A DNA stretch of 37,355 bases from an uncultured Candidatus Peribacteria bacterium (GTDB taxonomy: Bacteria > Patescibacteriota > Gracilibacteria > Absconditabacterales > Absconditicoccaceae): contig CAYSXV010000004.1 in assembly GCA_964435215.1 (NCBI GenBank), forward strand, positions 1 to 37,355. Direction: 5' to 3'. The notes below the pieces were generated by a model. It saw only the letters and a program-made list of their open reading frames with translations. It ran no database searches and had not been told where the DNA came from. Made by a program: the position numbers and the translations under genes. Numbering within the stretch: the first letter of the stretch is position 1; each line of letters starts with the position of its first letter. Below are positions 1,207-22,847 of this stretch, piece by piece.

Positions 1207-3015
1207 ATGACAAACTTAGAAGCTTTTAAGGTACTTTGACTGACTAGTAAAACATTGGATGCATTAGCAAAAAAATGATTTGAAACACCATCAGAGATAC
1301 AAAGCCAAGTAATTCCATTACTTTTGGCTAATGAAAAAAACATTATATGACAAGCAGATACCTGAACTGGTAAAACTGCTGCTTTTGGTATACCTTTGAT
1401 AGAATTACTTACTCCTTCCAAAAACATACAAGCACTTATACTTGTACCTACTAGAGAACTTGCAGTTCAAGTTGCTGAAGAAATATCTTCTTTACAAAGC
1501 GGTACTTGATTACAGATTACTTCTATATATGGATGAGCATCTTATGAGACTCAAAATAGAGCATTGAGAAGAGGAGTTGATATAGTTGTAGGTACACCAT
1601 GAAGAATCATGGATCATATGGATAGATGAAGTATAAAACTAGATAATCTTTCTTATTTCATACTAGATGAAGCAGATGAAATGTTGAATATGTGATTCCT
1701 TGATGATATTAAAAAAATATTTTCTAAAACTAAAAAAGAAAAAAGAGTGCTTTTGTTCTCTGCTACTATGCCAAATGAAATATTAAGTATTGTAAAAAAA
1801 TATATGTGAGAATGTCAGCTTATATCTGCTAAAAAAGCACAATCTGATCTTGCTCAAACTGAACAATTCTATCTAGAAGTAAATGAAAGAGATAAATTCG
1901 AAGCTTTGTGTAGAGTAATGGATAATGAACCAGATTTTTATTGAATTGTTTTCTGTAAAACAAAGGCTGATGTAGATTTCTTATTTAATAAACTTCATGA
2001 AAGATGATATATGGCACAAGCTCTTCATTGAGATATAGCGCAAAAACAAAGAGAAAATATTTTGAAATTATTTAAAAATAAAAAGGTTAAAATACTTATA
2101 GCGACTGATGTTGCAGCTAGATGAATAGATGTAAATGATATGACTCATGTTGTAAATTATAATTTCCCTCAAGATCCTGAAAGATATGTACATAGAATAG
2201 GTAGAACTGGTAGAGCAGGTAAGACTTGAAAAGCTATTACTTTTGTAACGTGAAGTGAATATAAGAAACTTTGATTCTTTCAAAGAGCTACAAAATCTGA
2301 TATCAAAAAAGCAGAAATGCCTGAAATTAAAAATGTTATTAAAAATAAACAGACTAGATTAAAAAGTAGTATATATGCTATGATAGAAGCTTGAAATTTA
2401 GAAAAATATGATGATTTTGTAACAGAACTATTGATAGATAATGATGCTAATAAAATAATTGCTGCTTTATTGAAGATGGCTTATCAGAATGAATTGAGTG
2501 AAGATAATTATAGACCAATAGATAAAGCTGGTACAAGACAGGCATATTCTAGTACTTGAAGTACAAGATTATTTCTAGCTATCGGTAAATTGAAATGATA
2601 TTCACCTAGATCATTGGTAGAATATATCTATCAAGAAACTGGAGTGAGTGGAAGAGATATAGATGATGTAAGAGTAATGGAAGACTTTTCTTTTGTTACA
2701 GTACCTAGTGCAAAAGCTGAAATAATAATAAGTAAATTTAAATCTCAAAAACAAGATTGAAAATCTATTGTAAGTATAGCTAAAGACTCAAGTACTGCTC
2801 CTTCAAGAGATAGTTATGATAATAAAAGATCTTATGGTAAATCATATTCAAGGGATTCATGATCTGGGTGATATAAAGGTAAGAGTAATTATTGAAAACC
2901 AAGTGGTTGATATTGAGATAAAAAATATGGTTGATGATGAGATAAGAAATCTTATTGATCATCAGATAAGAAATCTTATTGATCGTCTGATAAAAAATAT
3001 TCTAAAAGTTATTAA
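1207..3015 (+). CDS. deaD: DEAD-box ATP-dependent RNA helicase (DeaD/CshA-like) with a DbpA-type C-terminal domain and a Gly/Ser/Lys-rich tail
   Basis: Table-25 translation carries the Q-motif region (GFETPSEIQ), motif I (DTGTGKT, with Gly = TGA at 1363-1365), DEAD (LDEADEM), SAT, and [10 protein letters not shown]. The frame is continuous from 1207 to TAA at 3013-3015. The tail reads ...GSGGYKGKSNYGKPSGGYGDKKYGGGGDKKSYGSSDKKSYGSS. Confidence 0.95.
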
Positions 3016-3025
3016 ATAAAATATA

Positions 3026-3054
3026 AACCTGATTTAATAGTCAGGTTTTTTTTC
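3026..3054 (+). terminator. Rho-independent terminator of the helicase gene
   Basis: Stem AACCTGA (3026-3032) / TCAGGTT (3041-3047) followed by a T-run. Confidence 0.75.
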
Positions 3055-3108
3055 TTTTGAAAATATATCTGGAAAGATTATAATGAATTTCAAAAACAAA
3101 AAATATAT

Positions 3109-3621
3109 ATGAAGAAAAATTTTGTAAAAGCTCTAGTCACTAGGGAATTCTGGGTAGAGTATATAAGTTTGTATGTGTCCATAATCATAGCTACATTAAT
3201 CGTTCAAATGGCTATATTGAAGATGGATATGAGTATAATTATATTCTGTTTAATTAAATCTTTTTTGGTAACCTTCCCCAATATCATTGCTATTATGTAT
3301 GGTAGGCGTATAAATATAGTTGTAAAGCACTGGTTTATGGAAGTAATTCTTTATGTTATCTGTAGTTTACCTTATTTTGAGATAATACTTATAGCTATGT
3401 ATAAACAGGATTTTATCCTGAGTATAGATATGTTGAAGTATTATGCTTTGGTATATTTAATTATGGGATTATTTATAAAGCAGTATTTGAATTTCTCAAA
3501 GAAGCTTATAAATAGGATATTTGACGGGGAATTCTTTTGAATCCCCGTTTTTTTATTTAGACAATATTGTCCTTGTATAATTAAAGTAAATCATTATATT
3601 ATGTCTAATATTAGGTATTAA
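3109..3621 (+). CDS. Small multi-pass membrane protein. It is 143 aa if the TGA at 3538-3540 terminates (standard code) and 170 aa if that TGA is read as Gly (host code).
   Basis: The ORF from ATG 3109 has no internal TGA, all its Gly are GGN, and it has hydrophobic segments. The only in-frame TGA sits in the loop of a strong terminator hairpin. Table-25 read-through continues to TAA at 3619-3621. Confidence 0.55.
3524..3556 (+). terminator. Rho-independent terminator overlapping the TGA of the preceding ORF
   Basis: Stem ACGGGGA (3524-3530) / TCCCCGT (3542-3548) followed by TTTTTTT. Confidence 0.8.
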
Positions 3622-3659
3622 GAACTTAATAGACTTTTAATTTTTTTTCACTAATTATT

Positions 3660-3857
3660 ATGAAACAAGGAACTATCAAAAAGTGGATAGAAGAGAAAAA
3701 TTTTGGTTTTATTCTTGCATCTGATGGAGAATTCTTTTTCCATATTTCAGGATGTGTAGAAAACTATCAGCCAAAAGAAGGAGACGAAGTAACTTTCGTT
3801 CTTGGGAAAAATGACAGAACAGGTAAAACACAAGCTCAAGACGTACAACCTGCATAG
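3660..3857 (+). CDS. Cold-shock domain (CspA-family-like) protein, 65 aa
   Basis: MKQGTIKKWIEEKNFGFILASDGEFFFHISGC...EGDEVTFVLGKNDRTGKTQAQDVQPA matches the CSD pattern (G-x-[VI]-K-W-x..KGFGFI...D-x-F-x-H). It ends at TAG and contains no TGA. Confidence 0.8.
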   Translation: MKQGTIKKWIEEKNFGFILASDGEFFFHISGCVENYQPKEGDEVTFVLGKNDRTGKTQAQDVQPA

Positions 3858-3885
3858 TAGATTTTCTTCAGATATTTTGAAAAAG

Positions 3886-3912
3886 GAGGCTCGCTTAGGC
3901 GGGTCTTTTTTG
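3886..3912 (+). terminator. Rho-independent terminator after the csp-like gene
   Basis: Hairpin CTCGC-TTAG-GCGGG (3890-3903) followed by TCTTTTTT. Confidence 0.6.
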
Positions 3913-3968
3913 TTGACTTGATTTTTGTTTTATGTAATGATAATTATATTTAGTTTGTAATATATGAA

Positions 3969-4241
3969 ATGAAGCACGCAAAAAAAATCGAAAAATATGA
4001 TTGAACTACGGATGAACTTATAGAAGACATAGGGAACTTAGACTATGATTCATTAGCTGAACATTTTGAAAAACTTTCAAAGAAATTTCAGAGAGATTCA
4101 ATCAATGATATTCAATTAAATCACCCTCAAGTAGCTGAAAAATTAAAAAATATATCTATCAGATTAAAAGATATTTTAGAACAAGAGTCTAGACCATTAG
4201 CTGATTTATGTAGGGGGTATAATGAAAGAAACGAAAGATAA
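3969..4241 (+). CDS. Hypothetical protein, 90 aa
   Basis: Table-25 ORF MKHAKKIEKYDGTTDELIEDIGNLDYDSLAEHFEKLSKKFQRD... with one TGA=Gly. It ends at TAA 4239-4241. Confidence 0.45.
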
Positions 4242-4369
4242 ACTTATCTTAGATATTCTCGAATCTGATCTTGAGGTCATTTTGGTTAAGTTTCTAGTGA
4301 ACTAATATTTATAGAGTTAATACATAAATGTATAATTTGTATTCTTAATATTGGAATAGTTCAGTTTTA

Positions 4370-4828
4370 TTATTTTTTCTTGTTATTGCTTATAATTGCA
4401 ATGGAACAAACTGTGATTACTATGAACGCAATTAATGCTAAAGCTGGTATAGTGATAAATCAAAATATTTTTCGATCTATTAAAGTACAAGGATTACCTG
4501 GAGCACAAGTAAGGACATTTAATGAATTTATATATTGTATGATATAGTGATAACTAGTTAAGATAATTCAAACAATAGAGATAGGCAATATTGTATAAAC
4601 TATTTTCTTATCTTTATTAATTAGTCAAACTAAGGAAATCCATACTAATGGATACATCAATATCCTTGCCCATCGACATAGATGACATGGCTCAAAACCT
4701 GTTCCACCAAACAAATCACCATTTCCTATATTTGCAATCGGATCTCCAAAATTGGAAAAATATAGTGATCAGGCTGTTGCTAATATGGCTTGTATGAAAA
4801 TAATACGAAGAAGATATTTAGATTTCAT
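4370..4828 (-). CDS. DsbB/BdbC-family disulfide bond formation protein (membrane thiol oxidoreductase)
   Basis: Table-25 translation reads MKSKYLLRIIFIQAILATAGSLYFSNFG...FEPCHLCRWARILMYPLVWI...LTCAPGNPCT.... It has the CxxC-W/Q-R-I-x-MYP signature, a second Cys pair and four hydrophobic helices. Length is 459 nt. Confidence 0.75.
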
Positions 4829-4910
4829 GTTTTATAATATATAAATTTAAACTTATTTGAGGATAATATGACTAGATAAAAACATTTCAATAGATTTTTT
4901 TTAAAACAAA

Positions 4911-4932
4911 AATTACTCCCTAGAGAGTAATT
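4911..4932 (-). terminator. Hairpin terminator downstream of the small acidic ORF (potentially bidirectional)
   Basis: 8-bp stem AATTACTC (4911-4918) / GAGTAATT (4925-4932). T-rich tracts flank it on both strands. Confidence 0.5.
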
Positions 4933-4955
4933 TTATTTATAAGTTGAAAAGATAA

Positions 4956-5075
4956 TTATTCTGCAGCTACTTCTTCAGTTGCTTCAGGAACTATTTCTTC
5001 TGCTTCAGTTGCTTCAGGAGTTGCTTCAGTAGCGTCTGTTGCTACTACTTCTTCTACAGTTGTTTCGTCTGTCAT
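4956..5075 (-). CDS. Small acidic Thr/Glu/Ala-rich protein, 39 aa (hypothetical)
   Basis: MTDETTVEEVVATDATEATPEATEAEEIVPEATEEVAAE runs from ATG 5073-5075 to TAA 4956-4958, with a hairpin terminator just downstream. Confidence 0.35.
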   Translation of the reverse strand: MTDETTVEEVVATDATEATPEATEAEEIVPEATEEVAAE

Positions 5076-5198
5076 TGTGTTTCGAGGTTAGTATATAAAA
5101 GGTTTCTCGTACCTATTTTTGATACTGCAATGACTATAATAAAAAGATAACGAATAGCTAGTCTTTATTGATATAATTAGAAAATTATTTAAAATTAA

Positions 5199-5226
5199 TT
5201 GACAAATGTTTTTTAATGTTTATAAT
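5199..5226 (+). promoter_or_regulatory. Consensus sigma70-type promoter (TTGACA-N16-TATAAT)
   Basis: TTGACA at 5199-5204 and TATAAT at 5221-5226, about 34 nt upstream of the ATG at 5260. Confidence 0.6.
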
Positions 5227-5259
5227 AAAATGTAATTTTACTTTTATATAAGTTATATT

Positions 5260-5850
5260 ATGAAGAAAAAAACAATTCCTGAGATCCATCAAATGAGAAG
5301 AGAATCTGCAAAATTCCAAAGAGGAGATACAGCTAAACAAAGAAAGGCATTGGTAAAAGTGTTTGAAGTTAAAGATAAAATAGAAAATGTTAATGATTAT
5401 AATAAACTGTATACTTTTGCTGATTTAGAAAAAAAACCTTTAGTCACTATAGAGGAATTTAGAAATACATTTAAAAATTATGCTATTACATGAGCTTGAA
5501 TAATATGAAGTGTGGTTATTAAAATAATAAATAAAATGAAAATAAATGAAGATGAATTATTTGAACTTATTAAAATAGCTAAAAAATGAATGGAGGTACA
5601 TTCAAAAATGAATGATGAACCAATAGAGGAAGAACAGTTTAGAAATGTAATGATTAATCTTGAAACTGACTTAGCAATAAAATTAATTAATGAACGAGAA
5701 GAAACTTGAATAATAAAACAAGATGATTTCTTGATGGAATATTTAAGTAAATATAATAATAAATATTTACCTGATTTGCCTTTGAAAAAAATTGAACAAT
5801 TTTGGAAAGCTATGTGAAGTGAATATGATGAACAATGACATAATATTTAA
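5260..5850 (+). CDS. Hypothetical protein, 196 aa under table 25
   Basis: The standard-code ORF is 5260-5493. The same frame continues through TGA codons (5491, 5497, 5506...) to TAA 5848-5850, with an in-frame ATG at 5536. The C-terminal half reads MKINEDELFELIKIAKKGMEVHSKMNDEP... Confidence 0.5.
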
Positions 5851-5864
5851 TATAAAAATATAGA

Positions 5865-5889
5865 AGAGGAGTAATGTCCTCTTTTTTTG
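5865..5889 (+). terminator. Rho-independent terminator
   Basis: Stem AGAGGA (5865-5870) / TCCTCT (5877-5882) followed by TTTTTTT. Confidence 0.7.
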
Positions 5890-5950
5890 TGTATTGCTTA
5901 TGTTAGATTAATCTATACACTGATATCATAATTTTATATATTATTAAAAC

Positions 5951-6448
5951 ATGACAGAATTACTTATTATTTTTCAGTTACATACTGATAAAAAAACTAT
6001 TATCGTTAGTGATATGATCATCCCAGTGCCTAAATGATTATCTAATATAGAGATGATGACTCTTATAAAAAATTCTCTTTCTGCAATAGATTGAGCTGGA
6101 GCTATACTCAATATCATCAATCTAAATACTATTAATGCTCCAAAAGTAGAAGTAGTAAAGGATTATACTCCAAGACCAGAACGTACTTCTTTCTGACCTA
6201 GAAAAGATAAGAGTTATGGTAATAATTGATTTTCTAGAGGTGAAGGTAGACCATCAGCAAGATATTGATGACATACATCTAAACCACCTAGAGAAGACAG
6301 ACCAGCTAGAGAAGATAGTAGACCATTTAGAGAGGAAAGTAAATGATGACATCGTCCTAATAAACCATCAGCTTGATACTGACATAAACCTACATGAGGA
6401 TGATTCCATAAATGAGGTAGACCATCTCGTCCATCTAGATCAAGATAA
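5951..6448 (+). CDS. Hypothetical protein with an Arg/Gly/Pro-rich C-terminal tail, 165 aa
   Basis: Table-25 frame from ATG 5951: MTELLIIFQLHTDKKTIIVSDMIIPVPKGLSNIEMMTLIKN...RTSFGPRKDKSYGNNGFSRGEGRPSARYGGHTSKPPREDRPAREDSRPFREESKGGHRPNKPSAGYGHKPTGGGFHKGGRPSRPSRSR. Stop is TAA at 6446-6448. Track ORFs 6216-6458(+) and 6214-6513(-) are off-frame shadows of this gene. Confidence 0.6.
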
Positions 6449-6460
6449 TTGTAAATAAAA

Positions 6461-6489
6461 AAAGCCTTCCCCAAAAAAGGCAAGGCTTT
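6461..6489. terminator. Bidirectional terminator between convergent genes
   Basis: Stem AAAGCCTT (6461-6468) / AAGGCTTT (6482-6489), with A/T runs on both sides. Confidence 0.65.
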
Positions 6490-6517
6490 CAATAAATAAT
6501 TTGAGCATGGCAATACG

Positions 6518-7942
6518 CTATGCTTTTTTTTCTTTGAGTAGAGCAGCTGTGGCTGCGTTACAGAATTCTTCCGAATAGCGGTTACTTTCTATTTGTTTTA
6601 GTAAGGCTGATTGGGAAGCAAATGGACACATCTCAACAAGAATCCTTAGATGATGAACTTTGAGAAAGATTTCATCTATTGAGTTTTGTGAGAGTTTGGG
6701 AATAATAGATAACATTGTTTGATAGTCATCACCAATCTTATTGGCAATTGAGATCAAATTGTTTTGTTCTTCCAGATAGATAGATGCGGCTCTGCATAAC
6801 CCTTCCGGATATTTTTTTTGTTTGAGAATTTCCATGATCTCTACATCAGTTTTCTTTTCGAAATGTAGATATGGAAGTACTTTGGAGCAAAAACCATCAT
6901 CGTATTTTGCCTTTTCCATCAATTCCCAAAGTCCAGGTTCGTCTCTCTTTTTGAGATTGAGTTCTTTGATTGCGATTTTTAGTGCATCATTACTGAAAAA
7001 GTTTTTTCCCAGGACAAAGATAATATTGTCGTCATCCTTGAGAAATGGAATTGCCTTTGGGCAAATACCACTCATGTAGTGATGCTTTTCCAGTAGAGCT
7101 AAGATATCTTCATCCTTTTTACATATGGGGAAGAGAACTTCGCAGGTACTGAAATTATTTTGGCAGGTTTCAAATGCTAACCACATGTTAGCTTTTTGTT
7201 TTAAGGTTGGAACAACGATATTGGCAACGAATGGATGATAGTTTGACTTCTTCATAAGTGTCATCTTTGTTTTTTCATCCGTTATCATAGGAATTCCGTT
7301 GATACATGTTTTGAGATCAAACTTTGATCCTACGATTACTTCCATGATTTCTTTCTTTTTTTTGAGCCGGAGGACTCCGATTTCAGAAATATGATCACGA
7401 TAATTAAATCGTTGCATAACCTTGAGTGCGTTACTGGCAGATAAGTAGGGTATAAGTAAACGACAAATCGTCCAGTTGTAAACTGAATTTTGTACAAGTG
7501 CCCAGCGCCATGATTCTTTTTTTTCTGAGATTTTGAGCAGGGGAATGATAGCATCGCACATGTGAAATCCATACTTTGATTGTTCCATGATTTCTAACAA
7601 TTCCAGTTCTGTTTTGGTCTCCAGTCTGAAAAATGGAATCATATAATGGCAGACAATATCATCGTAACCGCTCTGTTTGATAAGAGCTATTAATTCTTTG
7701 TCTGTCTTGGCTGTGAGAGTGATCCGAGATAGCAACAAAGGTAATAAATCAGAGGAATGACTAGCTTTGGCAATAGGATATAATAAACCCTCAAAACTGT
7801 TTTGTTCCTTGAGTAATGAGATACCCAATCTACATACCTCCACTTCATACTTTGATTGCTCCATAATATTAAGAACTGTTTTTTCAGCGACCGTAATCTT
7901 CTGAGAAATACAAGCTCTAAAAAATCCTGATAAGTGTTTCAT
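6518..7942 (-). CDS. 474-aa alpha-helical repeat protein of unknown family. It is TGA-free and is the last gene of the RT cluster.
   Basis: Uninterrupted ORF with no TGA in 474 codons; all 14 Gly are GGN. About 12 degenerate repeats of roughly 38-42 aa share the pattern hhxhMxxSKYxxxxCxxhhPhLK (for example IMEQSKYEVEVCRLGISLLK, IMEQSKYGFHMCDAIIPLLK, LMEKAKYDDGFCSKVLPYLH). It looks GC-richer than its surroundings. AAGG lies 3 nt upstream of the ATG. Confidence 0.8.
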   Translation of the reverse strand: MKHLSGFFRACISQKITVAEKTVLNIMEQSKYEVEVCRLGISLLKEQNSFEGLLYPIAKASHSSDLLPLLLSRITLTAKTDKELIALIKQSGYDDIVCHYMIPFFRLETKTELELLEIMEQSKYGFHMCDAIIPLLKISEKKESWRWALVQNSVYNWTICRLLIPYLSASNALKVMQRFNYRDHISEIGVLRLKKKKEIMEVIVGSKFDLKTCINGIPMITDEKTKMTLMKKSNYHPFVANIVVPTLKQKANMWLAFETCQNNFSTCEVLFPICKKDEDILALLEKHHYMSGICPKAIPFLKDDDNIIFVLGKNFFSNDALKIAIKELNLKKRDEPGLWELMEKAKYDDGFCSKVLPYLHFEKKTDVEIMEILKQKKYPEGLCRAASIYLEEQNNLISIANKIGDDYQTMLSIIPKLSQNSIDEIFLKVHHLRILVEMCPFASQSALLKQIESNRYSEEFCNAATAALLKEKKA

Positions 7943-8052
7943 AGCCTTATTTGTTTTAGTTATTGATTGTGTTTTTATTATTGTTGGTTTTGTATTTTAT
8001 TAAGTATTACAATATAGATAAGAAAAATAATATCAAGAATAATGTTTTTTTA

Positions 8053-8331
8053 AAAAAATGCCCTGAATAAAAATCCAGGACATAAGTGGTATGGGCAAGT
8101 AAGGTTCCTGTCAGAAATGTAACCTTATTTATAAGGTTATAAATAAGACTGATTTTTATTGATATTCAACTGAATATCTTTTTCTGTCGGAACTTGTCGG
8201 AAATGTAAGGTTACATAAATATCACTTCCTCTTGTCCTAATCATAAATACCTCGTCTCGCAATATGCGGGGACTTTCAAAAGACAAAGCTTTAACCGGCA
8301 TTTAACGTGCAAAATACGCACGGCTTTTTTT
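8053..8331 (-). ncRNA. Structured RNA, paralog 0 of the RT-associated RNA family (diverged copy between the vWA gene and the 474-aa gene)
   Basis: It shares the 20-nt core GTCTCGCAATATGCGGGGAC (8254-8273, + strand notation) with the copies at 15237-15256 and 15559-15578. It also has the same closing stem, AAGTGG(TAT) at 8084-8092 against (ATAT)CACTT at 8219-8227. The two upstream hairpins are replaced by different sequences that still form hairpins (CGTGC..GCACG at 8307-8323; CTTT..AAAG). Confidence 0.55.
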
Positions 8332-10665
8332 TTATTTCTGTTTAAATATTTTTCATTGCATTGCGATAAAATAATCTCTTAACCTTTCTTTTCATTTAGT
8401 CATAATTTCTCAAGCATTATCCAAAAATAATTTCCATTCTGAAGTAAATATTTCAGAAAAATATTCTTTTTCAAAGTCTTGTAATCATAATCATACAAGG
8501 ATATCATTTCAATCAAATCTTTCAGCGACTTCTTTTAGTTCGTCTCAGTCTTTTCATTTATTTGGTTGGCCATCAGTAATAATAATAGGCATAAGTAATA
8601 TATCACGATTTTTTACAAAAAATTCATCTCATTTTTCGAGAATATCTTCTAATCATGATGCAATATCTGTCCTACTTTGTAAATTACTTAACATTCTACT
8701 TATTATTCATTTATTTGAATAATATTGGTCATCAAAAGATTTAATTGAAGTAACTTTTGCTCAAAATGTATTTATATAAAATGGTATTCATAATCTCTCA
8801 CAAAATAATGACATAAAGATTGCAAATGCTAATACTTCAAGAGCGACATCAGACATAGAACCACTAACGTCGATACTTAATGACATTCATAATTGTATAC
8901 GTACAGAATTTTCTTCATCTTCTCTACCATATACATCGTAATGTCACATTTTTATTTTTCTTCATGCTCAAATAATATTATATATTTTACCAGAAAAATA
9001 ATCACCATCTATAGTAATATCTTTTAATTTTGGAATATCATTCATAAGATCTTGTATAAACTCTTCTACTAATGGAGCTATTCTCTGTTCTATAACCTGA
9101 TATTTTTGATAATCATATTCTTGATCTTCAGAGAATCATTGTTCTTTCATCTCTTCTAAAAATCTTTTTCTTTTTTCCAAAAGCATTTTTTTTCTATTCT
9201 GTATCATTTCTTCAGCGGCTTTTCTATTTTTATTTGTCTTTATATTTCATGCTTTTCACTCTTGTTCTTCAAGTTTTTTCCAATCTTTATAATCAAAATC
9301 TTTTATAGTCGATGCAATATCATCAACAGCTTTTTTATCTTTATGAAATTGTTTGATCATATCTTCAATCCTTTTTTGTAGATTATCATCTGGGATTTCT
9401 GATCAAGGTTCTTTATCTTTTCAAGTAGGTTTTTTACTAGATGGAACAATATTTCATTCATCATCAGTATCCCAATCAAATTGAGGCATAGATTTTTTGA
9501 CTTCTTTGAGACCATCATTATCTATTTTTTTCTTTGCACGATCTATGTATGGTTGTTTCTCTTCAGGAGAATTATTTTTCCGCTCTTCATCAATTTTACG
9601 TTGAACTCATTTTTTTTCTATAGGTGTTAAATCTTTGTTGTTGGGCACGTCATCTAGAGAATCCAAAAGATCATCTAAAACTGAATTTCATCATGGTTGA
9701 GATGAATTGGATCATGGGTTGGGTTCAGATTTATTATTTTTTTTTCATTTTTTTGATTTTGATTGAATTAATTTTTTTAATTCTTCTAAATATTTCATAA
9801 GTTTTGCTTGATCATCAACATCTTTTTTAAGAATATCTTCAAGTATAGGCCAAAAGGTAATATTTTTTATTCATATTCTTTTATCGTTATCCATACTGAT
9901 ATCAGCAATCTGTTGTAGATATGGTTTAGCATTTTCTAAATGGATTTTCACTTCATCTGTAATATCTACTTTTACGTTATAATCATTTGGAAAATAATTA
10001 TTTAAATAATAATAAATAACAGCTATTTCAAATTGTTTGATTCTAGGTAGATGCTGAGCAGAAAGTACTCATGTAGAAAATGGTGCTTGTATGTGTCTAT
10101 AAAGCATCTTTATACCATTTTTTCTAACGGCATTTGTTTTTGCTCTCATAGAGTTGATGTAAAAATCTTCTACAACATTAAAAAACCTATGAATAGGAGA
10201 AGATGGAAGTTGTTTGTGATATGCTATCCTATTGCATCTTACAACGTCTTTGAAATCAGATGATAGTGCGTGTTGCATTTCATGTCATTGTACTTCACGC
10301 AATAATTGATCATCTAATTGTAACATCATAGAAAGACTATAGTAGAGATATTTGGGTTCAAAAAGCTCTTCAGGAATTTTTTTAATAGAATAATTTCAGT
10401 TCATATATCATGGAATATATTCATCGATCTCTTCTCCCAATCAACAAGCAAAAGTATCTCAGTCCTTTAATGGTCTAAGAGTAAGCTTTTTGGGGGATAT
10501 ACTGATGAGATATTCTAAATATTCCAACTTGTTTTCTACTAGAGTTTCCAATGCTTCATCAGAAATTTCATCTCAATCAAATAATTGTTTAGCTAAATAA
10601 GCATTGGACAAATTGGGCTCAGTATAATCCGCATATTGAAGTACATCAAATGTTTTGTTTTTCAT
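8332..10665 (-). CDS. HExxH metallopeptidase-like plus von Willebrand factor A (MIDAS) domain protein, 777 aa (resembles the DUF2201_N/DUF2201 partners of MoxR ATPases)
   Basis: The table-25 frame was checked codon by codon and has no TAA/TAG. HEMQH lies at 10270-10284. A charged Lys/Glu/Asp-rich linker follows. The C-terminal vWA domain has the MIDAS motif DVSGSMS (8851-8871) and IIITDGQPN. Its ATG (10663-10665) is 2 nt after the stop of the AAA gene. Confidence 0.8.
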
Positions 10666-10667
10666 TT

Positions 10668-13346
10668 TTATGTATTTGGAGTCTGATTAAAGAGTGTTTC
10701 TAATTTTAGATTTTTATTTGTTCAATAATTTTTTACTTCTTCAAGAACTGTTTCTCTTGATAGAGTTTTTAAATCATTTTTTATAGTTTCTCTATCAGAT
10801 AGAGAGGGGATAGAGTTTATATAAACTTCGATAAACGCCTTTTCAGGAGTATATCATAAACAAAGTAAATATAGCATTTTATTTAAATCTCTTTGTGAAA
10901 CAGAAGATGTTATCTTGCTTGATCTATCTATACCAGTCATTTTCTGGATATATTTACTGCGGAAATAATGAGCATACAAAAGTATTTCATTTATAGATTC
11001 GATTCATTTAATAAATTCTGGATTATAAGAAGATGTCTGTTTTTTATTTATAATATCATTCCATACCTGGATAAATTCTCTATCAGAAAGATATGAATCT
11101 TGCATCTTTGATATTTTTTCTTTTTGATCTTCACGTAATCAGTTACCATTGTGTTCTCTGATAATATAATATTTGATTTCATCAACATCACTTTGTGTGA
11201 ATCCTTCCTTAGATAATAATTTATAAAAATAAGGTACATTTTTGTATGTCATCAAAGCTTCATCATAGTTAACTATATTGTCTGTTATCAGGCTAGGATA
11301 GTCAATAAATTGAAAAAACGCTCTGCTAGAAATTTCAGCTGATAAAACATTGTTTCATTTATATACGTGTGTATTTGGATTCATTGTACCAAATATAAGC
11401 ACACTTTCTTTTGCTTTTTTTGAAGTATCACTATGAGGGAAATATAATTTTCTTCTCATATCCAATAGAGAATTTAATAATTTTGCTACTTCAGGACGTA
11501 GACTGTTAATCTCATCAAGAACCAATATAGCTCATTCAGTTTCAATAGCTTTTACTACTTCAGAATTTAATTTATATGTACCATTTTTATCTATAAGCCA
11601 TAGGTATGTCATATCATCTTTAGTGGTTTTTTCATTACAAGCAAAATTGAATACTGGTCTACCAGTATAATGAGCAAAAATATCTATTGCTACATTTTTA
11701 CCTACACCAGCTTCTCATTCTAAGATACCAAATCAATCTTGAGTAAGTAATTGATACTCAGATAGATGTACTATTTTATGTAATATCTCCATCACTGATG
11801 GAGGAATAACTATTTTAGAATTTAATTCTGGTGCTTTTTTGAGAGCAGAAAACAATCATGGCATAGCATTTATTTTTCTGATAACTCTAAAATAATGAGG
11901 AATATTTTTTTCTATTTCATCTCTTACTTCATGTAAACGCATCTGTAATTCTTGATATTCTGCAGATTTTTTATCTTCAAAGCGAATCAAAGAATCTGTT
12001 AATCTCACTTCTTCAGCAAATAATTCATTACATTCTTGGGTTTTATGAAATGTTGTATATTCTTTCATCATCTTTTTATATTCTTCTTCAGTCATCTTAT
12101 ATGGATTTTCTGGTCTGATTTTTTTCTCATCAGAAGCTTTGATAATTTTTCAGGATTTGATATCTTTTATATTTAGATGTACATTATCATCTACAATTTC
12201 AGGTTCTGCTTTCCATAAACTATTTGGTTTGTATAAGAATCTAGGAAAAACTGCTGATCCAAAATGGACTTCATCTCATCTAACTTTTATTTTAGGGAGA
12301 TTGATCTGTAGTGTAAGTAATTGTTCTTTTTTAAGATCTTCAAGTATTCAAATTAAATAAGTTTTTTTATCCTCAGATAAAAAATTTAATAAAGATTTCC
12401 ATTGTTTAATAATATCTTTTTGTCAGTAAGCTTCCAATTCTTCCTTGCTATGTAATGTTTCGATATCTTCACTGATTACTGTATTTACAAAAATTTCACA
12501 TAGAGTATATATCTCTTTGGTATATGAATCTTTGACATCATCACAAAGTTTTATAAAAAATTTAGCTTCTTCTTCATCTCAAGCAAGCTCTTCATTTTTT
12601 TTATATATAACATCATTCATCTCATCAATCAAAATAGCTATGGGGACAAAAATATCTTTGGTCTTTTGAGCATGACGTAGTTCTTGCACGATACTGTGTT
12701 TTTTTTCATATACCTGTTTGAAATGATCTTGAATATAAGCATTACTAATCAATTCATGAGCGTATGTATAAGATTGGTCATCTAAATATCATTGCTCCAT
12801 AAAATATTTCAATTCTTTTTCGATATTTTTGGAATATTGATAATCGAGAGAAACATTGGAACATATATTTGTTGTCCATTTTAAAAGATTTTGTTGGAAT
12901 AAAGAACTAATAGTATTGCGTAATTGAGTTTTAAGAAAATCTTCTGCTTCAGGATCTCATGTAGCAAAATCATAGGAAATAAGATCATTTATATCATCAC
13001 GTAAAGATTTTTTATTATTTAATAAACTATCATACATATTATTTTCGAGTGAATTTTGTAGTGATTTCCAAGTCTTAGCTTTGGCTTTTTTATGCTGATT
13101 TAGCATGATTTTGATTAATTGAGGAAAAATATCAGTAATCAATTTACTAATCATTTCTTTTTCTTCTTGTGGAATATTGTCACGTGAAAGTGAATCCAAA
13201 AGCTGTTTCTGGACTTCTACTATCATATGTACATCAGCAAAACGATATTCGCCGATATCAGTATTTGATTTAATCTGACTTAATATTTTTGATATACGTG
13301 CCATACTCATGTTGTTGTCTTTTAAGAAATTAAATATTACATTCAC
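10668..13346 (-). CDS. Large MoxR/AAA_5-type AAA+ ATPase, 892 aa, with an uncharacterised helical N-terminal region of about 470 aa
   Basis: The table-25 frame was checked and is continuous. Walker A is GEAGVGKN (11694-11717). Walker B plus the AAA_5-like segment reads AILVLDEINSLRPEVAKLLNSLLDMRRK (about 11455-11538), followed by ...VLIFGTMNP. The ATG at 13344-13346 overlaps the RT stop by 10 nt. Confidence 0.8.
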
Positions 13347-14926
13347 ATATCAGCACCATTTACAATAGAGTAAGAATAATAATTTTTCTTAGCATTTATT
13401 TTTGGGAAATGTTGTTGTTTAGCTGATCGATAATATTTTTCAAATTCATCTGCGACATGTCATTTTAATACTTCACTAGGTCTATTTTCTAATCATTGTC
13501 ATTTTACATCGGCTATGAAACTTCTTATACCATTCAGAGTGTCTGCAAGTAGTAGACCATCAACTTTACCTGTTTTAGGATCTTTGAATTTAATAGGTAA
13601 ATTACTTGGAGCAGTAGCTGCTGTCCTAGCAAATCAAATATATCTTGTCATTTTTTCTTGTGATATTCATAGTCTTCAATCATGACCTATCATGATACCA
13701 TTTACTTCTCTTGCTGTAGAAGCATTACGTCATCGAGATTTACTTTTACTATGCTTTATCTTCCATCAATTATGATTAACTATAGTCTGGATCTCTTGTT
13801 GTAAAAAATCCATTCAATCTGTTCATGGAGTCATATTTACAAATTTTAAGTATCTATCTATTTCTCATATTATGTTGTATCTAGTTTGTTCGAAAACTTC
13901 TATATTATTAAATTGATTATTTGCTGCGTAATCTAATATCTTTTGTTTAATTTTAAGTAACAATGCTCTTACTCTTCATCTGTTATATTCATCATCAAAT
14001 ATTACAGGACATTTTACAAGTTCATTGATATCATTTGATATAGATTGTATCTGAAAAACTGATTCTAAACCACTTTCAGCTTTGTTACTAAAAGTACTTT
14101 CAAGTTTATTATTTGTCTGTATAAGTTGTTGTTCTATATTTATATAATTTTTAAAATCTTTGAAACTGATTGCTATATCATCTATATATCTACTATACAA
14201 TGCATCACTTACAGGTGAAGCTTGGTTATATAAAAATTTTAATATATCCTGATCTGTCTTTGCAAATACAATATTTAATATGCGTGAACTTGTAGGTGCT
14301 CACTGTGGTAATTCATCATTTAATGTAATCAGAACTGTAAGATAAACAAAAAATATTTTCTTTTGTTCTTCATTGAGATAGGGGAATGATAGTTCTAGAT
14401 TTTTGGACATAGCTGTAGAAAGATTTTTATATACTCTATATGCATTTACACTTGGATAAGCATTTTTGATATCAGTAGTATATAAATATTTATTTGGTCT
14501 ATGTAATAATGCATTCTTTTTTGGGCTTGTTCATTTTTCACCACCGACAGTAGCTATAGAAACAGGTACATTTCTAAGAACGTCCAATAAATTCTCTTGA
14601 ATCTGTTTTAAAGGATCGGCAGGAGCGTTTATTGTTCTATATTCTTTTCAATCAGCTTTAAGGATTTTAAATTGAAAATATCATTGAGAAACTTCTTCCT
14701 CTCTGCTGCTGTTTTTTAAGGTAACGGTAGCGAGTGATTTTTCTTTAAGTTTCAATTTAATAACATCGATAAGTGTAGTTATGCTGCAACCACAAAAGTG
14801 AGATAAGGCCTTTAAAATTTCCTTGTCTAGATTGTCTACTGACTTTCTCAGGATATCTTTTTGTTCTTCCAAAAAGTGTTGGTTCTTATCCAAAATTTCT
14901 GCATCTTTATTTTCGGGTGTATGCAT
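13337..14926 (-). CDS. Retron-type reverse transcriptase, 529 aa
   Basis: Manual table-25 translation shows YRTINAPADPLKQIQENLL (motif 1), SPKKNALLH (retron NAxxH region, 14501-14515), YLYTTDIKNAYPSV (motif 2), LPQGAPTSSRILN (motif 4), and YSRYIDDIAISF (YxDD, 14177-14188). REVNGIMIG sits at the position of the retron VTG motif. Stop is TAA at 13337-13339. Confidence 0.9.
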
Positions 14927-14958
14927 GGTTATATTAAATATATATAAATTTATATAAT

Positions 14959-14986
14959 CTTATAATTATTTACTAGTAAATGTCAA
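14959..14986 (-). promoter_or_regulatory. Promoter of the RT operon (TTGACA-N16-TATAAG), copy 1 of a triplicated promoter module
   Basis: On the minus strand, TTGACA is at 14986-14981 and TATAAG at 14964-14959. The block TATAATTATTTACTAGTAAATGTCAATA recurs at 15311-15338 and 15633-15660. Confidence 0.65.
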
Positions 14987-15011
14987 TACGAAGGACTAGA
15001 AAATTTAGAAC

Positions 15012-15303
15012 AAAAAAAGCCCCTGAATGGGGCAAGTGGTACAATGCTTGAGATAGGTCAACGGCAAATAAAGAGCAAATATAGAGCAAATTAAGAGCAA
15101 ATGAGGAGCAAGGAAATGTAGATATAACAAGGGTTATAGTGCTATCTGGAGATTTCTCTAGAGATTTCTCTAGATAGTTATCCGGAGTTATCTGAGTAAT
15201 ATTTCATTTCCACTTTATCTCAATCATCAATGTCTTGTCTCGCAATATGCGGGGACTTCAACAGGAAAGATCCTGTAACGACTAAGAAGGCGTAAGCCTC
15301 GGG
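15012..15303 (-). ncRNA. RT-associated structured RNA, paralog 1 (msr/msd-like candidate), with its own promoter and terminator
   Basis: A promoter sits at 15309-15336. The 5' scaffold of about 110 nt has three hairpins: GAGGC-UUAC-GCCUU, CAGG-AUCUUU-CCUG, and GUC..CGCA-UAU-UGCG..GAC. The closing stem AAGUGG/CCACUU (15211-15216 / 15034-15039) encloses an insert of about 170 nt. The terminator is GCCCC-loop-GGGGC (15019-15033) plus U7. Confidence 0.7.
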
Positions 15304-15308
15304 GACAA

Positions 15309-15336
15309 TATATAATTATTTACTATTAAATGTCAA
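15309..15336 (-). promoter_or_regulatory. Promoter of RNA paralog 1 (TTGACA-N16-TATATA)
   Basis: On the minus strand, TTGACA is at 15336-15331 and TATATA at 15314-15309. It lies immediately downstream of the paralog-2 terminator. Confidence 0.65.
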
Positions 15337-15343
15337 TAGAAGT

Positions 15344-15624
15344 AAAAAAAGAAAAAGCCCCTAAATGGGGCGAGTGGAAGCATGATTTAATAATGTGGTT
15401 TGTGGTGTTCCTTAGTTAGGAATTGAGTTAGGATTTTAGTACGTTGGTATTGAACGTTGCGAAATGTTGTTTCGCATTGCGAATATCAGTTTTCCCTAGT
15501 TATCCGTGGTTATCCCGATAGAATTACCTTTCCACTTTATCATAATCATCAATGTCTTGTCTCGCAATATGCGGGGACTCCAACAGGAAAGATCCTGTAA
15601 CGACTATGAAGGCATAAGCCTCGA
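15344..15624 (-). ncRNA. RT-associated structured RNA, paralog 2, with its own promoter and terminator
   Basis: Its scaffold and promoter are about 135 nt near-identical to paralog 1 (15527-15660 against 15196-15338). The insert (15380-15530) is completely different. The closing stem is AGUGGAA/UUCCACU. The terminator is GCCCC-loop-GGGGC (15357-15371) plus a U-run. Confidence 0.7.
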
Positions 15625-15630
15625 GGGCAA

Positions 15631-15658
15631 TATATAATTATTTACTAGTAAATGTCAA
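15631..15658 (-). promoter_or_regulatory. Promoter of RNA paralog 2 (TTGACA-N16-TATATA)
   Basis: On the minus strand, TTGACA is at 15658-15653 and TATATA at 15636-15631, about 12 nt after the helicase stop codon. Confidence 0.65.
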
Positions 15659-15669
15659 TAGTTAGATTT

Positions 15670-17052
15670 TTATGTCATATTTTCTTGAATAAATTTTTTG
15701 ATTGCTGGATGGAAAAACAGATGTCTCCTTTCTATCTTAGTTAATAATTTAATACCAGCTAAAGTCCTTGATCTGCTAAGTGCTGTATATGCTTGTCATC
15801 AAGTAAAGATACCATAAAGATCTAGTGTACAAGCATCGAAAGTCATTCACTGTGATTTATGGATAGTGATAGAGTAGGCGAGTTTCAATGGTAGCTGTGA
15901 ATAGGTTCATAAGATATCTTCTTGGACTGCTCATTTATCAGTAATAGTAACTTCTTTGTTATATCGAGTTTCTGGTAAGATAGAAATAGTTTCGTTTCAT
16001 ATTTCGACATCAACGAAGTCTTCTCATAGACCTTGTACAAATCACATAGATCAATTGATCCATCTACCTGACATATCGTTGGTAATCATCATGACCTTTG
16101 CTCATTTTTTTAATCTGAGTATATCATCAGCCTTTTTCATACCGTCTGGAAATTTTCATTCAGTTTCTCAATGATAGAGATATTCTTTTCATGATAGTTC
16201 AAATAATTTTTTATTATTTACTGTATCTACTTTGTTTCTATGAGTAGATAATAAAATCACATCTGAATCTGCTTCTCATAGTTGTTTATTTAATACAGAG
16301 AGATGAAAATCTGATATATCTTCATTTCTTATAGCATCTAGAATATCTCAGAAAAATTGATCATGTTCTTGTCTATAATTTTTTTTCAATTCTATGATAT
16401 CATATGGCAGTTTATTTTTAAATGTAATAGAATCAAAAAACCATTCGCTCTCATAATGATTTGCAAATTTATCTTTCCAATCTTGATTACTTACAGGTGG
16501 TAGTTGAAAAACATCTCAAACGAAAATAACTGGCTTACCTCAGAAAGGTTTCCTGGCTAGGCTAGAATCTCAGGTTTCTTTTGCGATATTATATGACATC
16601 AAAAAATTAATACAGTCTATAGTACTAGAGTTCAACATGCTGATTTCATCTATGATAACAAATGGCACATTCATAAGTGTTTTAACTTTTTTCTTTTTGA
16701 GTTTATATTGTCTATTTTTTTTATCTTTTAAATAATGTTGAATATCTTTGAAATATACATTCTCGATTCATAAAGAAAAAAAAGAATGAACAGTCTGTCA
16801 TCATATATTGAGTGCTGAGATACCTGTAGATCAGAGTGCTAGAGGTGGCTTGGATATACCTGTACAAAATTCTATCACATCTTTGATAAGAGTAGATTTT
16901 CCTGTACCTGCTTTACCAGTCAAGAATATACAATTATCTGTAGTATTTAGTTGATTTAGAAATGACAATGCATCAGGATTATCTTTTCGTTTATTTAGAA
17001 TTTTTTTGTATCTAGTTTTTACATCAGAGGATAAGTTATCAATATTTAGCAT
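15670..17052 (-). CDS. PIF1/RecD-like superfamily-1 DNA helicase, 460 aa
   Basis: The table-25 frame was checked and has no stops. Motifs: Walker A LTGKAGTGKST, GSTGISALNIGGQTVHSFF, Walker B VIIDEISM, VGDVFQLPPV, and C-terminal AYSITIHKSQGMTFD. Confidence 0.85.
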
Positions 17053-17521: not shown

Positions 17522-18283
17522 TTATTTTACCTCAATCAATCGTTCATTTGTTCTCATGAATGGAATAGTCCGAGGATCATTGTATTGATTTAAAATAGCT
17601 ACAGTATCTGTTGTAATATTTTGTTCTTTTAGTGCTTTTTGGAATATACTAAGTTGTTTATTTGCTCTGGACTCTTGCGCATATCGTGAAAATTTCCATA
17701 CATAATATTTTTTTGCTGGAAGTTCAACAAAAGTGATATTAGGATTGTTTGGTTTAGGTAAAGTTTCTATAGTATATTTGCTTGGCATAGTAAACGTAAT
17801 AAGATAACTATCGCCTTCTTTTTGTGTCCCCACAGGAGCAGTCATAGCAATAGTGCTATTTGTCTTTGTTACTCATACAGGAGCCGTCATGGCAATAGTG
17901 CTATTTGTCTTTGTTACTCATACAGGAGCCGTCATGGCAATAGTACTATTTGTTTTTGTTACTCATACAGGAGCAGTCATGGCAATTGTACTATTTGTTT
18001 TTGTAGTACCTACTGGAGCCGTCATAGCAACTGATGTCTTATTTGTATTTCATCAGAATATATATCACGCTAATTGACGGAATCAATCATTAAGAGCTTT
18101 ATTTTGTGAGCCTGTTACTGATACAACTGCTTGTATCATAGGTCCAATTTCACGCACTTCTATATTCCCAGTTATCATTGTGCTAGAAATAATTTTTGGT
18201 TTTTCGATGCTTCTTGTGCTAAAATATGACCAAGATACTCGTATCACTAATACGATAAATATAATTATAAGAACTATTTTCAT
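17522..18283 (-). CDS. SOUL haem-binding-family protein with an N-terminal signal/anchor and an internal 15-aa tandem repeat
   Basis: The sequence reads ...EKPKIISSTMITGNIEVREIGPMIQAVV...GFRQLAGYIFGGNTNK..., then five copies of (I)AMTAPVG.TKTNST, then ...YLITFTMPSKY...YNDPRTIPFMRTNERLIEV. A single table-25 frame links track ORFs 18083-18283 and 17522-17845. Confidence 0.8.
17832..18045. repeat. 45-bp tandem repeat, about 4.7 copies, in frame within the SOUL gene
   Basis: Units start at 17832, 17877, 17922, 17967 and 18012 (ACAGGAGC[AC]GTCATGGCAATAGTGCTATTTGTCTTTGTTACTCAT). There are only a few substitutions between units. Confidence 0.9.
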
Positions 18284-18450: not shown

Positions 18451-18780
18451 TTAAAAACAGGGGATGATAACCCTTTCATGCTCTGATAGATCGACAATAG
18501 CAACTAGAATCAGATGATCATTATCACTGAAGAATTCTGATGAGAATTTTTGTCCATCTACAAATTCAATGATATTGATATCTTGTTTTTGATCTTTCCT
18601 TTTTATCTTCAACTTAAGTGGAAGGGATTTTTTTTCTATTGATCCTTTACCGAAGTGTTTGAAATAAAAAGCTTGCCATGAAGGATAGTCTGTTGGTTGA
18701 TAGTGAGTAAACTCACTTGCAAATCGGAATTCTCCTTCTACACCTATGAGCGAATAAATATTAGCGCCTTTTAGTATCAT
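18451..18780 (-). CDS. Hypothetical protein, 109 aa (TGA-free)
   Basis: Intact ORF ending at TAA. All its Gly are GGN. A hairpin plus T-run on the minus strand lies just downstream (about 18410-18440). Confidence 0.5.
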   Translation of the reverse strand: MILKGANIYSLIGVEGEFRFASEFTHYQPTDYPSWQAFYFKHFGKGSIEKKSLPLKLKIKRKDQKQDINIIEFVDGQKFSSEFFSDNDHLILVAIVDLSEHERVIIPCF

Positions 18781-21900: not shown

Positions 21901-22847
21901 ATACAATATCAAAAGAATATTATGGATTATCAGTAAATGCTGCACCTAGAATCGTTACTTCATGAGCTGTATTATACAACAATAATTCACTTGTACTTAC
22001 ATTTGATACGCCGATTGCAGAACAGGTTCCATCATCATACACAAACAATCTTGCATGAACTACATATCTTACATGATCAGTATGAGCATTTTGAATTAGT
22101 GGAGGAAATGTTTCTGTAGAATCAGTTTCTCTTTATGGAACAAATTCTATAATCCTTTCTTTGAGTGGAGTAACTTCATGAACAAGTTTGTATATAAATT
22201 ATGCAAATGCTACTTCTTGAGTAAATAAAGCTATATATAGTACTACAAGTTATCAACCAGCATATCCTATTTATAGTATGCCAATTACTGTTAGTGAAGC
22301 TAGCGTAGGATGAGTGTGTGTGTGATGATGAGTTTGAGAAGCTTGTCTAAGTCTAGAAATTACTGCTGTTACCTGACAATGTCGATACTGAGTAAATCTT
22401 GATCTATGAAATCATGATCAAACATATAGCGCATTTACTATGACTGGAGCGTTTACTGGAAATAATTGAACATATCCTCTTAGATGGTCATGTAACGATA
22501 CCGCTTGAAAAGCACCTTGGAATATGCAGATATCTTCAACTGATTTAACAGTTACTTGAACTGCTTATTCTATCCCAAATACTGCTATAGAACTTAAAAC
22601 TGCTGAATTTACAAAATATAGATGAAGCAATTCTTATGCTGGATCTATATGAGCATTTGCTGCGCGAGGTACAAATTTATCTGCCCCAAGAAAAGTTTTT
22701 GAAAAAACTTCGCCTGCTGGTACTGTAGGTGAGATATGAACTGATACGGTAGATCTTAGAGTACTTGTACCTATCAACCAGGAAGTATGAGCATATCAAG
22801 CGACTATAACTATTGCTTATCCTCAGATGTAATTAAAATTATTTAGA
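18975..22847 (+). CDS. Large secreted/surface protein, 1290 aa: signal peptide, autotransporter-associated beta-strand (PATR-like) repeats, an FN3-like module, two beta-repeat modules of about 70 aa, and a SASA/sialate-O-acetylesterase-like (GQSN) domain
   Basis: All 1291 codons were checked in frame and contain no TAA/TAG. TGA=Gly codons are frequent. Signal peptide: MKKLISIIIFIMSICSFSVYA. PATR-like segment: GGLTKTGSGTLTLGGTNTYTGNTTISEGKI. FN3-like segment: PNAPSL...YTITANPG...LSPSTTYAFTLSAQNSAGSS. Duplicated modules: ATITYSTTGATSGNVIATLTG... and ATISYNPTGATNGNVIVTLTG.... Esterase motif: DIFIVAGQSNAAGWG (about 21195-21240). Confidence 0.85.

Follow-up and report, generated by a model that had tools for sequence, protein, structure and literature searches.

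The stretch of DNA analyzed here (37,355 nucleotides [nt] of contig CAYSXV010000004.1, assembly GCA_964435215.1, from an uncultured Candidatus Peribacteria bacterium; referred to as "the window" at its full length) carries at positions 6518-7942, on the minus strand, an open reading frame (ORF) for an all-alpha repeat protein, beside a locus encoding a retron-like reverse transcriptase (RT), an AAA_5 ATPase and a vWA-like protein. The solenoid ORF is probably a recently acquired, self-contained accessory gene and no part of the RT/AAA_5/vWA-like system. Under translation table 11 no other ORF of the window comes near it in length, all other genes being interrupted by TGA, and these reappear once stops are limited to TAA and TAG. 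Glycines that are universally conserved are written as TGA here: in DEAD-box motif I (A-D-T-G-T-G-K-T) it is the first G, in TPGR its G, and in an AAA+ Walker A motif again the first G. The host was therefore assigned genetic code 25 (TGA = Gly) and is an Absconditabacteria/SR1-type genome; the only relatives of the solenoid gene that bear a taxonomic name (candidate division SR1 and Candidatus Absconditabacteria) fit this assignment.

The evidence for a foreign origin begins with codon usage. The original prediction, made from the sequence alone, had described a TGA-free ORF with 14 GGN glycines among TGA-rich neighbors, richer in G and C than its flanks, and both observations were borne out. 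All 14 Gly codons of the ORF are GGN and none is TGA (the ORF also has 14 Cys), against a TGA share of Gly of 0.66 to 0.67 in the other window genes; of the 19 other window genes with nine or more Gly codons, not one is TGA-free, and the binomial probability for the ORF is P = 2.8 × 10−7, a simple binomial value that overstates significance because TGA share varies from gene to gene in these genomes with strong overdispersion, some other genes being TGA-free as well. The GC content was 36.1% (0.361) for the ORF and 28.3% (0.283) for the window. Relative to 23 window genes, GC at third codon positions (GC3) was 0.354 against a mean of 0.163 (standard deviation 0.042; z = +4.6), and the log-likelihood of the synonymous codons of the ORF under window usage was low (z = −4.2). 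C occupied 0.24 of four-fold sites against 0.05 in the window; ATC (0.43 versus 0.15), AAC (0.50 versus 0.15) and AAG were raised, ATA fell to about 0.14 of Ile codons from about 0.56, and G-ending codons were nearly unchanged. Codon usage in the ORF (C3-rich, ATA-poor, TGA-free) therefore differs from that of every native window gene, and the comparison of GC and codon usage that had been proposed as a check sets the ORF clearly apart. The ORF would yield an identical protein under codes 11 and 25. Elsewhere in the window, a 109-amino-acid (aa) ORF at 18451-18780 (minus strand) with no Pfam match has 0/6 Gly encoded by TGA and a GC3 of 0.27, counts too small for significance.

The second line of evidence comes from a close relative, represented by a 69-kb contig of the Joint Genome Institute (JGI; L011) and found through P0085 (83% identity), which is located on L011 and is the only database homolog of the vWA-like protein. 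The two sequences are collinear at 78 to 89% nucleotide identity over one block comprising PIF1, the noncoding RNAs (ncRNAs), RT, AAA_5, the vWA-like gene and the first downstream ncRNA copy (window 15660-8048), and over another running from the ortholog of 5951-6448 through the DEAD-box helicase and the OLD-like ATPase. At the slot where the window has the solenoid gene, L011 has none; it carries a second ncRNA copy, served by a separate promoter, and, on the opposite strand, an unrelated 213-aa gene of native composition (TGA 6/9, GC3 0.11). The features in and around this slot are the following.

6518-7942, minus strand: solenoid ORF, ATG at 7942, TAG stop at 6520-6518; 474 codons, all-alpha repeat protein
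About 6449-7980: window-specific segment, absent from the L011 syntenic site; edges approximate, set where BLAST/alignment homology ends
7943-8008, minus strand: 5' leader of about 65 nt, A-rich and T-poor by base composition
8009-8036, minus strand: sigma-70-like promoter (TTGATA, 16-nt spacer, TATTGT), called from consensus match and homology only
8058-8083, minus strand: terminator-like hairpin (11-pair stem plus T7) ending "RNA paralog 0"; kept in L011
6464-6481, minus strand: terminator-like hairpin with T-run, about 37 nt past the stop codon; equivalent in all orthologs

An assembly chimera was rejected, as both junctions recur in an independent assembly from another run (L013), which matches 8002-6236 at 99.8% identity. 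A shared insertion site of L008 and L011, based on a 31-nt match, was also rejected, the match being a common promoter motif. The solenoid insertion showed neither a recombinase nor an att-like site or flanking repeat. Gene content in this part of the window also differs from L011 at 5260-5850 (plus strand) and 4370-4828 (minus strand, DsbB family), which have no counterpart there (window 4286-5891 versus L011 14327-14909); with the OLD-like AAA_21 ATPase (1-867), the RT system and these differences in content, the region resembles a gene-flux or defense island.

The solenoid gene appears to form a transcriptional unit of its own. The "weak hairpin" that the original prediction had placed between the ncRNA and the ORF does exist, though it is terminator-like rather than weak and is conserved in L011, and it would separate the RT locus transcript(s) from the solenoid ORF. 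This hairpin and the gene's own promoter-like boxes, both from consensus scans only, argue against co-transcription with the RT operon. The putative promoter can be aligned to the one ahead of L011's second ncRNA copy (approximately 12636-12670), with homology stopping just past the −10 box. In the leader (−60 to −1), A makes up 0.63 and T 0.17 of bases, compared with 0.43 and 0.39 in other window genes; no functional-looking Shine-Dalgarno sequence was seen in it, and orthologs have similar leaders. The AAGG that had been pointed out ahead of the ATG is present and is indeed unusual, being the sole Shine-Dalgarno-like motif among 26 window genes, but it ends 2 nt before the ATG and not 3. Such spacing is too short for a functional Shine-Dalgarno sequence, orthologs have no such motif upstream apart from AGG in L001, and the AAGG is regarded as chance. 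Each ortholog likewise combines promoter-like boxes and an A-rich leader with a terminator hairpin.

The pace at which resident genes exchange their glycine codons bears on the time of arrival. Among native orthologs of the window and L011 (78 to 93% amino acid identity), 19 of 179 conserved Gly sites had switched between GGN and TGA, and lineage-specific Gly were TGA in 13 of 24 cases and GGN in the other 11. Switching in resident genes is thus fast, and a long-resident gene would therefore have gained TGA; for a gene of 14 GGN codons that arrived at about the window/L011 split, the probability of still having no TGA is about 0.36. Gain in the window lineage is favored over loss in that of L011 because codon usage is unameliorated and TGA is absent. 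We infer that the gene would have been acquired from another lineage of the candidate phyla radiation (CPR) with a GC3 of approximately 0.3 to 0.35, and that it may have arrived around or after the split from the L011 relative, so recently that host codon usage would not yet have been imposed on it. It occupies a variable slot at the edge of the RT locus, behind a putative promoter that is apparently resident and not imported.

Of the original proposal of horizontal acquisition from a standard-code organism or phage, the recent and horizontal part is upheld by the outlying codon usage and the absence from L011, whereas the donor it named was not found. With respect to phage or plasmid origin, no homolog was detected in IMG/VR (three scans with different profiles), INPHARED, PLSDB (tblastn) or PHROGs, and no phage, integrase or transposase genes adjoin the ortholog copies. 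Phage "morons" are autonomous horizontally acquired gene cassettes, and the solenoid gene resembles them in its own promoter- and terminator-like signals, its distinct composition and its presence or absence between close relatives. Unlike morons, it lies outside any prophage, has no recombinase, att-like site or flanking repeat, and stands behind an apparently resident promoter.

Several points weigh against recent acquisition. Synteny alone cannot polarize gain versus loss in the L011 lineage, and only the unameliorated composition favors gain. While atypical composition and absence from the syntenic site of a relative were both found, an identifiable donor lineage was not: the closest ortholog shares only 42% identity and comes from another code-25 genome. 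Orthologs in genomes of 33 to 35% GC are near host composition (z of approximately 1 to 1.6) and still TGA-free, and a simple recent arrival leaves the family-wide absence of TGA (described below) unaccounted for. The homology of the putative solenoid promoter to the ncRNA promoter of the RT locus makes co-regulation with the RT system possible. A scaffold function is read from fold and conservation only, Foldseek gave no significant match, and the background gene sets were drawn up by a simple ORF rule, which makes the statistics approximate.

To establish the distribution of the protein, 5.8 billion proteins were covered by a word-indexed search, which returned two homologs, and 1.84 billion cluster representatives by an exhaustive hidden Markov model (HMM) search, which returned 81 matches. 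Five collinear orthologs were identified (P0002-P0005 and P0008; 474 to 483 aa, 23 to 42% identity), and the HMM matches also include a wider set of 400- to 520-aa proteins with the same repeat, among them a Candidatus Falkowbacteria protein. A scan of GTDB genomes and a first metagenome scan yielded no further loci. Orthologs were found only in further Absconditabacteria/SR1 genomes with code 25; from the wider set, two loci belong to standard-code CPR genomes and have no in-frame TGA anywhere and a GC3 of approximately 0.35. Gly codons given by TGA at each ortholog locus, the TGA share of Gly in the host and the adjoining genes are as follows.

Window: 0/14; host 0.66
L001: 0/11; host 0.44; NUDIX and peptidase S51 genes adjoining
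L002: 0/10; host 0.26; Band_7 and GlmS adjoining
L004 (context seen in L004/L005): 0/9; host 0.17; directly after a ribosomal-protein operon and SecY
L006 (context seen in L006/L007): 0/11; host 0.26; PurC/PurE fusion adjoining
L008: 0/12
L015: 0/12, not independent of L004; directly after a ribosomal-protein operon and SecY

All seven ortholog loci in code-25 genomes are therefore TGA-free (0/79 Gly codons). The pattern held without the discovery gene, both for the replicates combined (Fisher P = 3.5 × 10−4) and when the four orthologs, all TGA-free, were set against background genes with at least nine Gly, of which 4 of 53 were TGA-free (P = 1.8 × 10−4). Gly positions are mostly lineage specific (41 of 50 Gly columns are singletons among orthologs) and the absence of TGA is therefore not an inheritance of old GGN codons, the counts being largely independent. 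A neutral account in which young Gly codons are simply GGN was rejected on the 13 of 24 lineage-specific Gly that are TGA in native genes. Ortholog GC3 stays within 0.29 to 0.35 while host GC3 spans 0.16 to 0.38. Every stop codon is TAA in the orthologs and TAG in the window gene, with tandem stops only in L001. Possible gene calling under code 11 in some databases would favor TGA-free full-length members; yet no TGA-split fragments of the orthogroup were found among the 81 HMM matches, the fragment P0057 looking frameshifted. Overall, the family-wide absence of TGA is modestly surprising, and two explanations remain: either the gene keeps moving from a reservoir in lineages or elements with little or no TGA, or selection favors a code-neutral sequence.

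Two code-25 genomes that hold orthologs also contain other genes with little or no TGA and raised GC3, probably further horizontal acquisitions: the PurC/PurE fusion of L006 (5137-6573, 0/19 Gly as TGA), and in L001 a 164-aa ORF (1280-1774, 0/13) and an OLD-family ATPase-nuclease (2772-4703, 2/23).

Selection might keep the family TGA-free if it shuttles between code-25 and standard-code cells, or if it has to be translated when TGA decoding is compromised. We consider this unlikely, though it overlaps with recent acquisition and addresses the question of why TGA is absent. The counts and P values above speak for it, as do the mostly lineage-specific Gly positions, the steadiness of ortholog GC3 across hosts, the exclusive use of TAA or TAG stops and the distant family members in standard-code CPR genomes. 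Predicted phages of Absconditabacteria and Gracilibacteria have been described that contain no in-frame TGA and can be read under either code (Liu et al. 2023, mBio, PMC10746230), and such phages would be a plausible vehicle. Like their genes, the solenoid gene is associated with code 25, has no in-frame TGA, ends in TAA or TAG and specifies the same protein under both codes; unlike them (PMC10746230), it is a single chromosomal gene with no phage-hallmark neighbors and no homolog in phage collections, so that of the properties of a code-11-compatible phage gene it shows freedom from TGA and a non-TGA stop and lacks phage or prophage location or homology. The same empty searches of IMG/VR, INPHARED, PLSDB and PHROGs, and the lack of a phage, integrase or transposase gene beside any copy, count against mobility on such a vehicle, and the stable syntenic position of the gene behind SecY in L004 and L015 looks vertical. 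Overdispersion of the TGA share and the existence of other TGA-free genes mean that binomial values are overstated here too, and code-11 gene calling could have enriched TGA-free members, although the lack of split fragments argues otherwise. More doubtful still is the specific claim that the orthogroup is under selection to stay code-neutral, either as cargo crossing a code boundary or as a protein needed when TGA decoding is disabled. As cargo, it could move between Absconditabacteria and standard-code CPR bacteria or hosts on code-agnostic mobile DNA; alternatively, the protein might have to be made even with TGA decoding off, as when a standard-code phage attacks.

Depletion of ATA and TGA together with enrichment of C3, the pattern of the solenoid ORF, is one that translational selection can produce, which raises the alternative of a native, very highly expressed gene. 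In the L004 and L015 genomes TGA use appears strongly tied to gene class or expression: TGA encodes 0 to 10% of Gly in ribosomal-protein genes and SecY (L004 1-9824, L015 116-5724; 0 to 27% gene by gene) against shares of 0.3 to 0.9 in others (30 to 40% in glycosyltransferase and Wzy-type genes, 92% in one HAD hydrolase). The ortholog follows directly on SecY in these genomes, and the solenoid gene is equipped with promoter-like boxes, an A-rich leader and a clean terminator. We nonetheless hold this account to be very unlikely and rejected it on a codon model trained on L004, whose log-likelihood ratio (ribosomal versus other genes) places the orthologs in the non-ribosomal class (−0.10 in L004, −0.04 to −0.12 elsewhere). 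AGA makes up 0.29 of Arg codons against 0.96 in ribosomal genes, the gene is missing from the sister genome L011, and its distribution is very patchy, with seven loci across 5.8 plus 1.84 billion proteins and the GTDB species representatives.

Last among the alternatives is membership in the neighboring RT system, as an effector, sensor or scaffold co-expressed with it. The locus comprises the following features.

15670-17052, minus strand: PIF1-type helicase, upstream of the ncRNAs
Between PIF1 and RT, minus strand: a pair of ncRNA-like paralogs (about 290 nt each) that have separate promoters and terminators
13337-14926, minus strand: RT (Pfam RVT_1; best PADLOC matches retron RT_VI, II-A and III-A, E = 5 × 10−35 to 5 × 10−31)
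10668-13346, minus strand: AAA_5 ATPase
8332-10665, minus strand: 777-aa protein with a vWA-like C terminus (DxSxS-type "DVSGSM" motif by eye; no Pfam match)
About 8330-8048, minus strand: third ncRNA paralog (RNA paralog 0), with the terminator-like hairpin at 8083-8058

Although the solenoid gene resembles retron-type accessory or effector genes in adjoining a retron-like RT with ncRNA copies on the same strand, directly downstream of such a copy, has a putative promoter that shares homology with one of this system's ncRNA promoters in L011 and lies in a region that, with its OLD-like AAA_21 ATPase, PIF1 and RT, resembles a defense island, we regard membership as highly improbable, the least credible of the accounts, since the sister RT locus (protein identities of 86 to 92%) has a different gene on the opposite strand in its place, no RVT gene lies within the fetched flanks (up to 10 kb on each side) of the orthologs in L001, L002, L004/L005, L006/L007 and L015, the conserved terminator-like hairpin precedes the gene, its composition is foreign whereas RT, AAA_5 and the vWA-like gene are native (TGA share 0.59 to 0.82, GC3 0.16 to 0.17), and its product matches no PADLOC model. 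The suggestion in the original prediction that the protein might belong to the RT system thus failed on co-occurrence, the gene being absent from L011 and its other orthologs lacking an RT; in this and in its foreign composition it is unlike retron-type accessory genes.

The RT locus itself merits some description. RT, AAA_5 and the vWA-like gene form an apparent operon (window 8048-15676, minus strand; L011 4343-12985), where two ncRNA paralogs precede RT and one follows the vWA-like gene; in L011, two copies lie on the downstream side and apparently additional ones upstream. The paralogs share a conserved 5' domain (core GTCCCCGCATATTGCGAGAC) with some covarying pairs, vary in their 3' part and carry their own terminators. 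Three near-identical predicted promoters (TATTGACATTTACTAGTAAATAATTATA) lie on the minus strand at 15633-15660, 15311-15338 and 14961-14988, of which two would drive the upstream ncRNA paralogs and one the RT operon.

The product of the acquired gene is best described as a repeat protein without a named family. An HMM of the repeat recognized 11 copies at a spacing of 27 to 31 aa, with degenerate copies in the larger gaps (53 to 83 aa), and gave the consensus KSEEEILEILKKSNYDEEVCEAGIPLL. The period is thus shorter than the approximately 40 aa originally proposed, and an AlphaFold2 model from a three-sequence alignment (predicted local distance difference test [pLDDT] score 88.6) has 34 helices of about 10 residues, or about 16 to 17 two-helix units. 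Eleven Cys, one per repeat, are invariant across the three closest orthologs, which sets the protein apart from named alpha-solenoid families. No signal peptide or membrane segment was seen by eye in the sequence. The product would be a cytoplasmic alpha-solenoid of about 16 to 17 two-helix repeats. Comparison of the consensus with the predicted helices places the conserved positions at an S/T-x-x-E helix cap, a turn Tyr, and a Cys and Pro of helix B, with a variable surface; because the conserved residues look structural in the model and the surface varies, the protein may be a binding scaffold or adaptor rather than an enzyme.

As had been noted, no named family could be assigned: sequence searches of Pfam, NCBIfam, PADLOC, PHROGs and PDB with the protein and its relatives returned nothing above threshold. 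The structure prediction proposed as a check did produce an all-helical solenoid, but a match to a HEAT-, ARM- or TPR-like family did not follow. Foldseek against PDB and BFVD, with a poor single-sequence model and with the good model, found only generic or designed solenoids, none significant (best E = 1.7 × 10−3, to designed repeats), and a PDB profile search found designed repeats only (E = 0.005). TPR, HEAT, ARM, PPR and Sel1 repeats were rejected in view of the lack of a Pfam match and template-modeling scores of at most 0.3 to natural solenoids. Ankyrin repeats were rejected as well, with no Pfam Ank match at E ≤ 1, a period of 27 to 31 aa and not 33 to 34, and helices only, with no beta-hairpin in the model. 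With the designed 31-residue alpha-toroid dTor_12x31L (PDB 5byo) and other alpha-solenoid repeat proteins, the protein shares tandem two-helix units of about 31 aa and an elongated all-alpha fold. An idealized solenoid consensus matched DARPin (E = 1.8 × 10−13), dTor 31L (E = 5.8 × 10−6) and RecX_HTH1 (27.4 bits, cut-off 26), a resemblance only, since the natural sequences miss the thresholds. For RecX, tested with Pfam RecX_HTH1 (cut-off 26; P0021 and P0043) and the NCBIfam RecX equivalogs (cut-offs 186 to 240; P0003 and P0008), natural proteins scored 15.8 to 17.2 bits and only the artificial consensus passed, and a RecX repeat was rejected. The solenoid protein is thus a new, unannotated member of the broad alpha-solenoid repeat class, carried as an autonomous accessory gene, and belongs to an undescribed, CPR-restricted family of two-helix repeats with one conserved Cys each. 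A distant member, P0029 (775 aa, JGI), carries at its N terminus an acidic array of 31-aa units that follow the same pattern (IKSFLEKVEHDAEFCKKLLPK; residues 77 to 111), one of which matches the Pfam Nif11 domain (E = 7 × 10−12); a remote link between the solenoid repeat and Nif11-type helical domains is possible on this similarity.

Repetitive proteins of other kinds are also encoded in the window. A 253-aa protein with an N-terminal hydrophobic segment (17522-18283, minus strand) contains five tandem 45-nt repeats at 17787-18056, encoding TKTNSTIAMTAPVGV, and a 1,285-aa ORF at 18975-22832 (plus strand; 11.8% Gly, with 80 TGA and 71 GGN codons) has internal repeats of about 210 nt (20494-20850) and by its composition is probably a large surface or repeat protein.

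If the gene was recently acquired, as we think probable, it would be a clean, dated case of gene gain in a genome that reads TGA as glycine, in which lack of TGA, together with the pace of GGN-to-TGA switching, serves as a clock. The RT locus loses a candidate component, the 3' boundary of the system being set at the ncRNA terminator (approximately 8050), and the slot past that terminator emerges as a place where genes turn over. Free of TGA, the gene could be expressed unmodified in Escherichia coli, which would make a CPR-specific protein family that is otherwise intractable directly testable. Should selection for code neutrality prove true, the orthogroup would be a natural marker of gene flow or conflict across genetic codes, and family-wide avoidance of TGA, if confirmed, would bear on whether the change of code isolates these bacteria from gene exchange.

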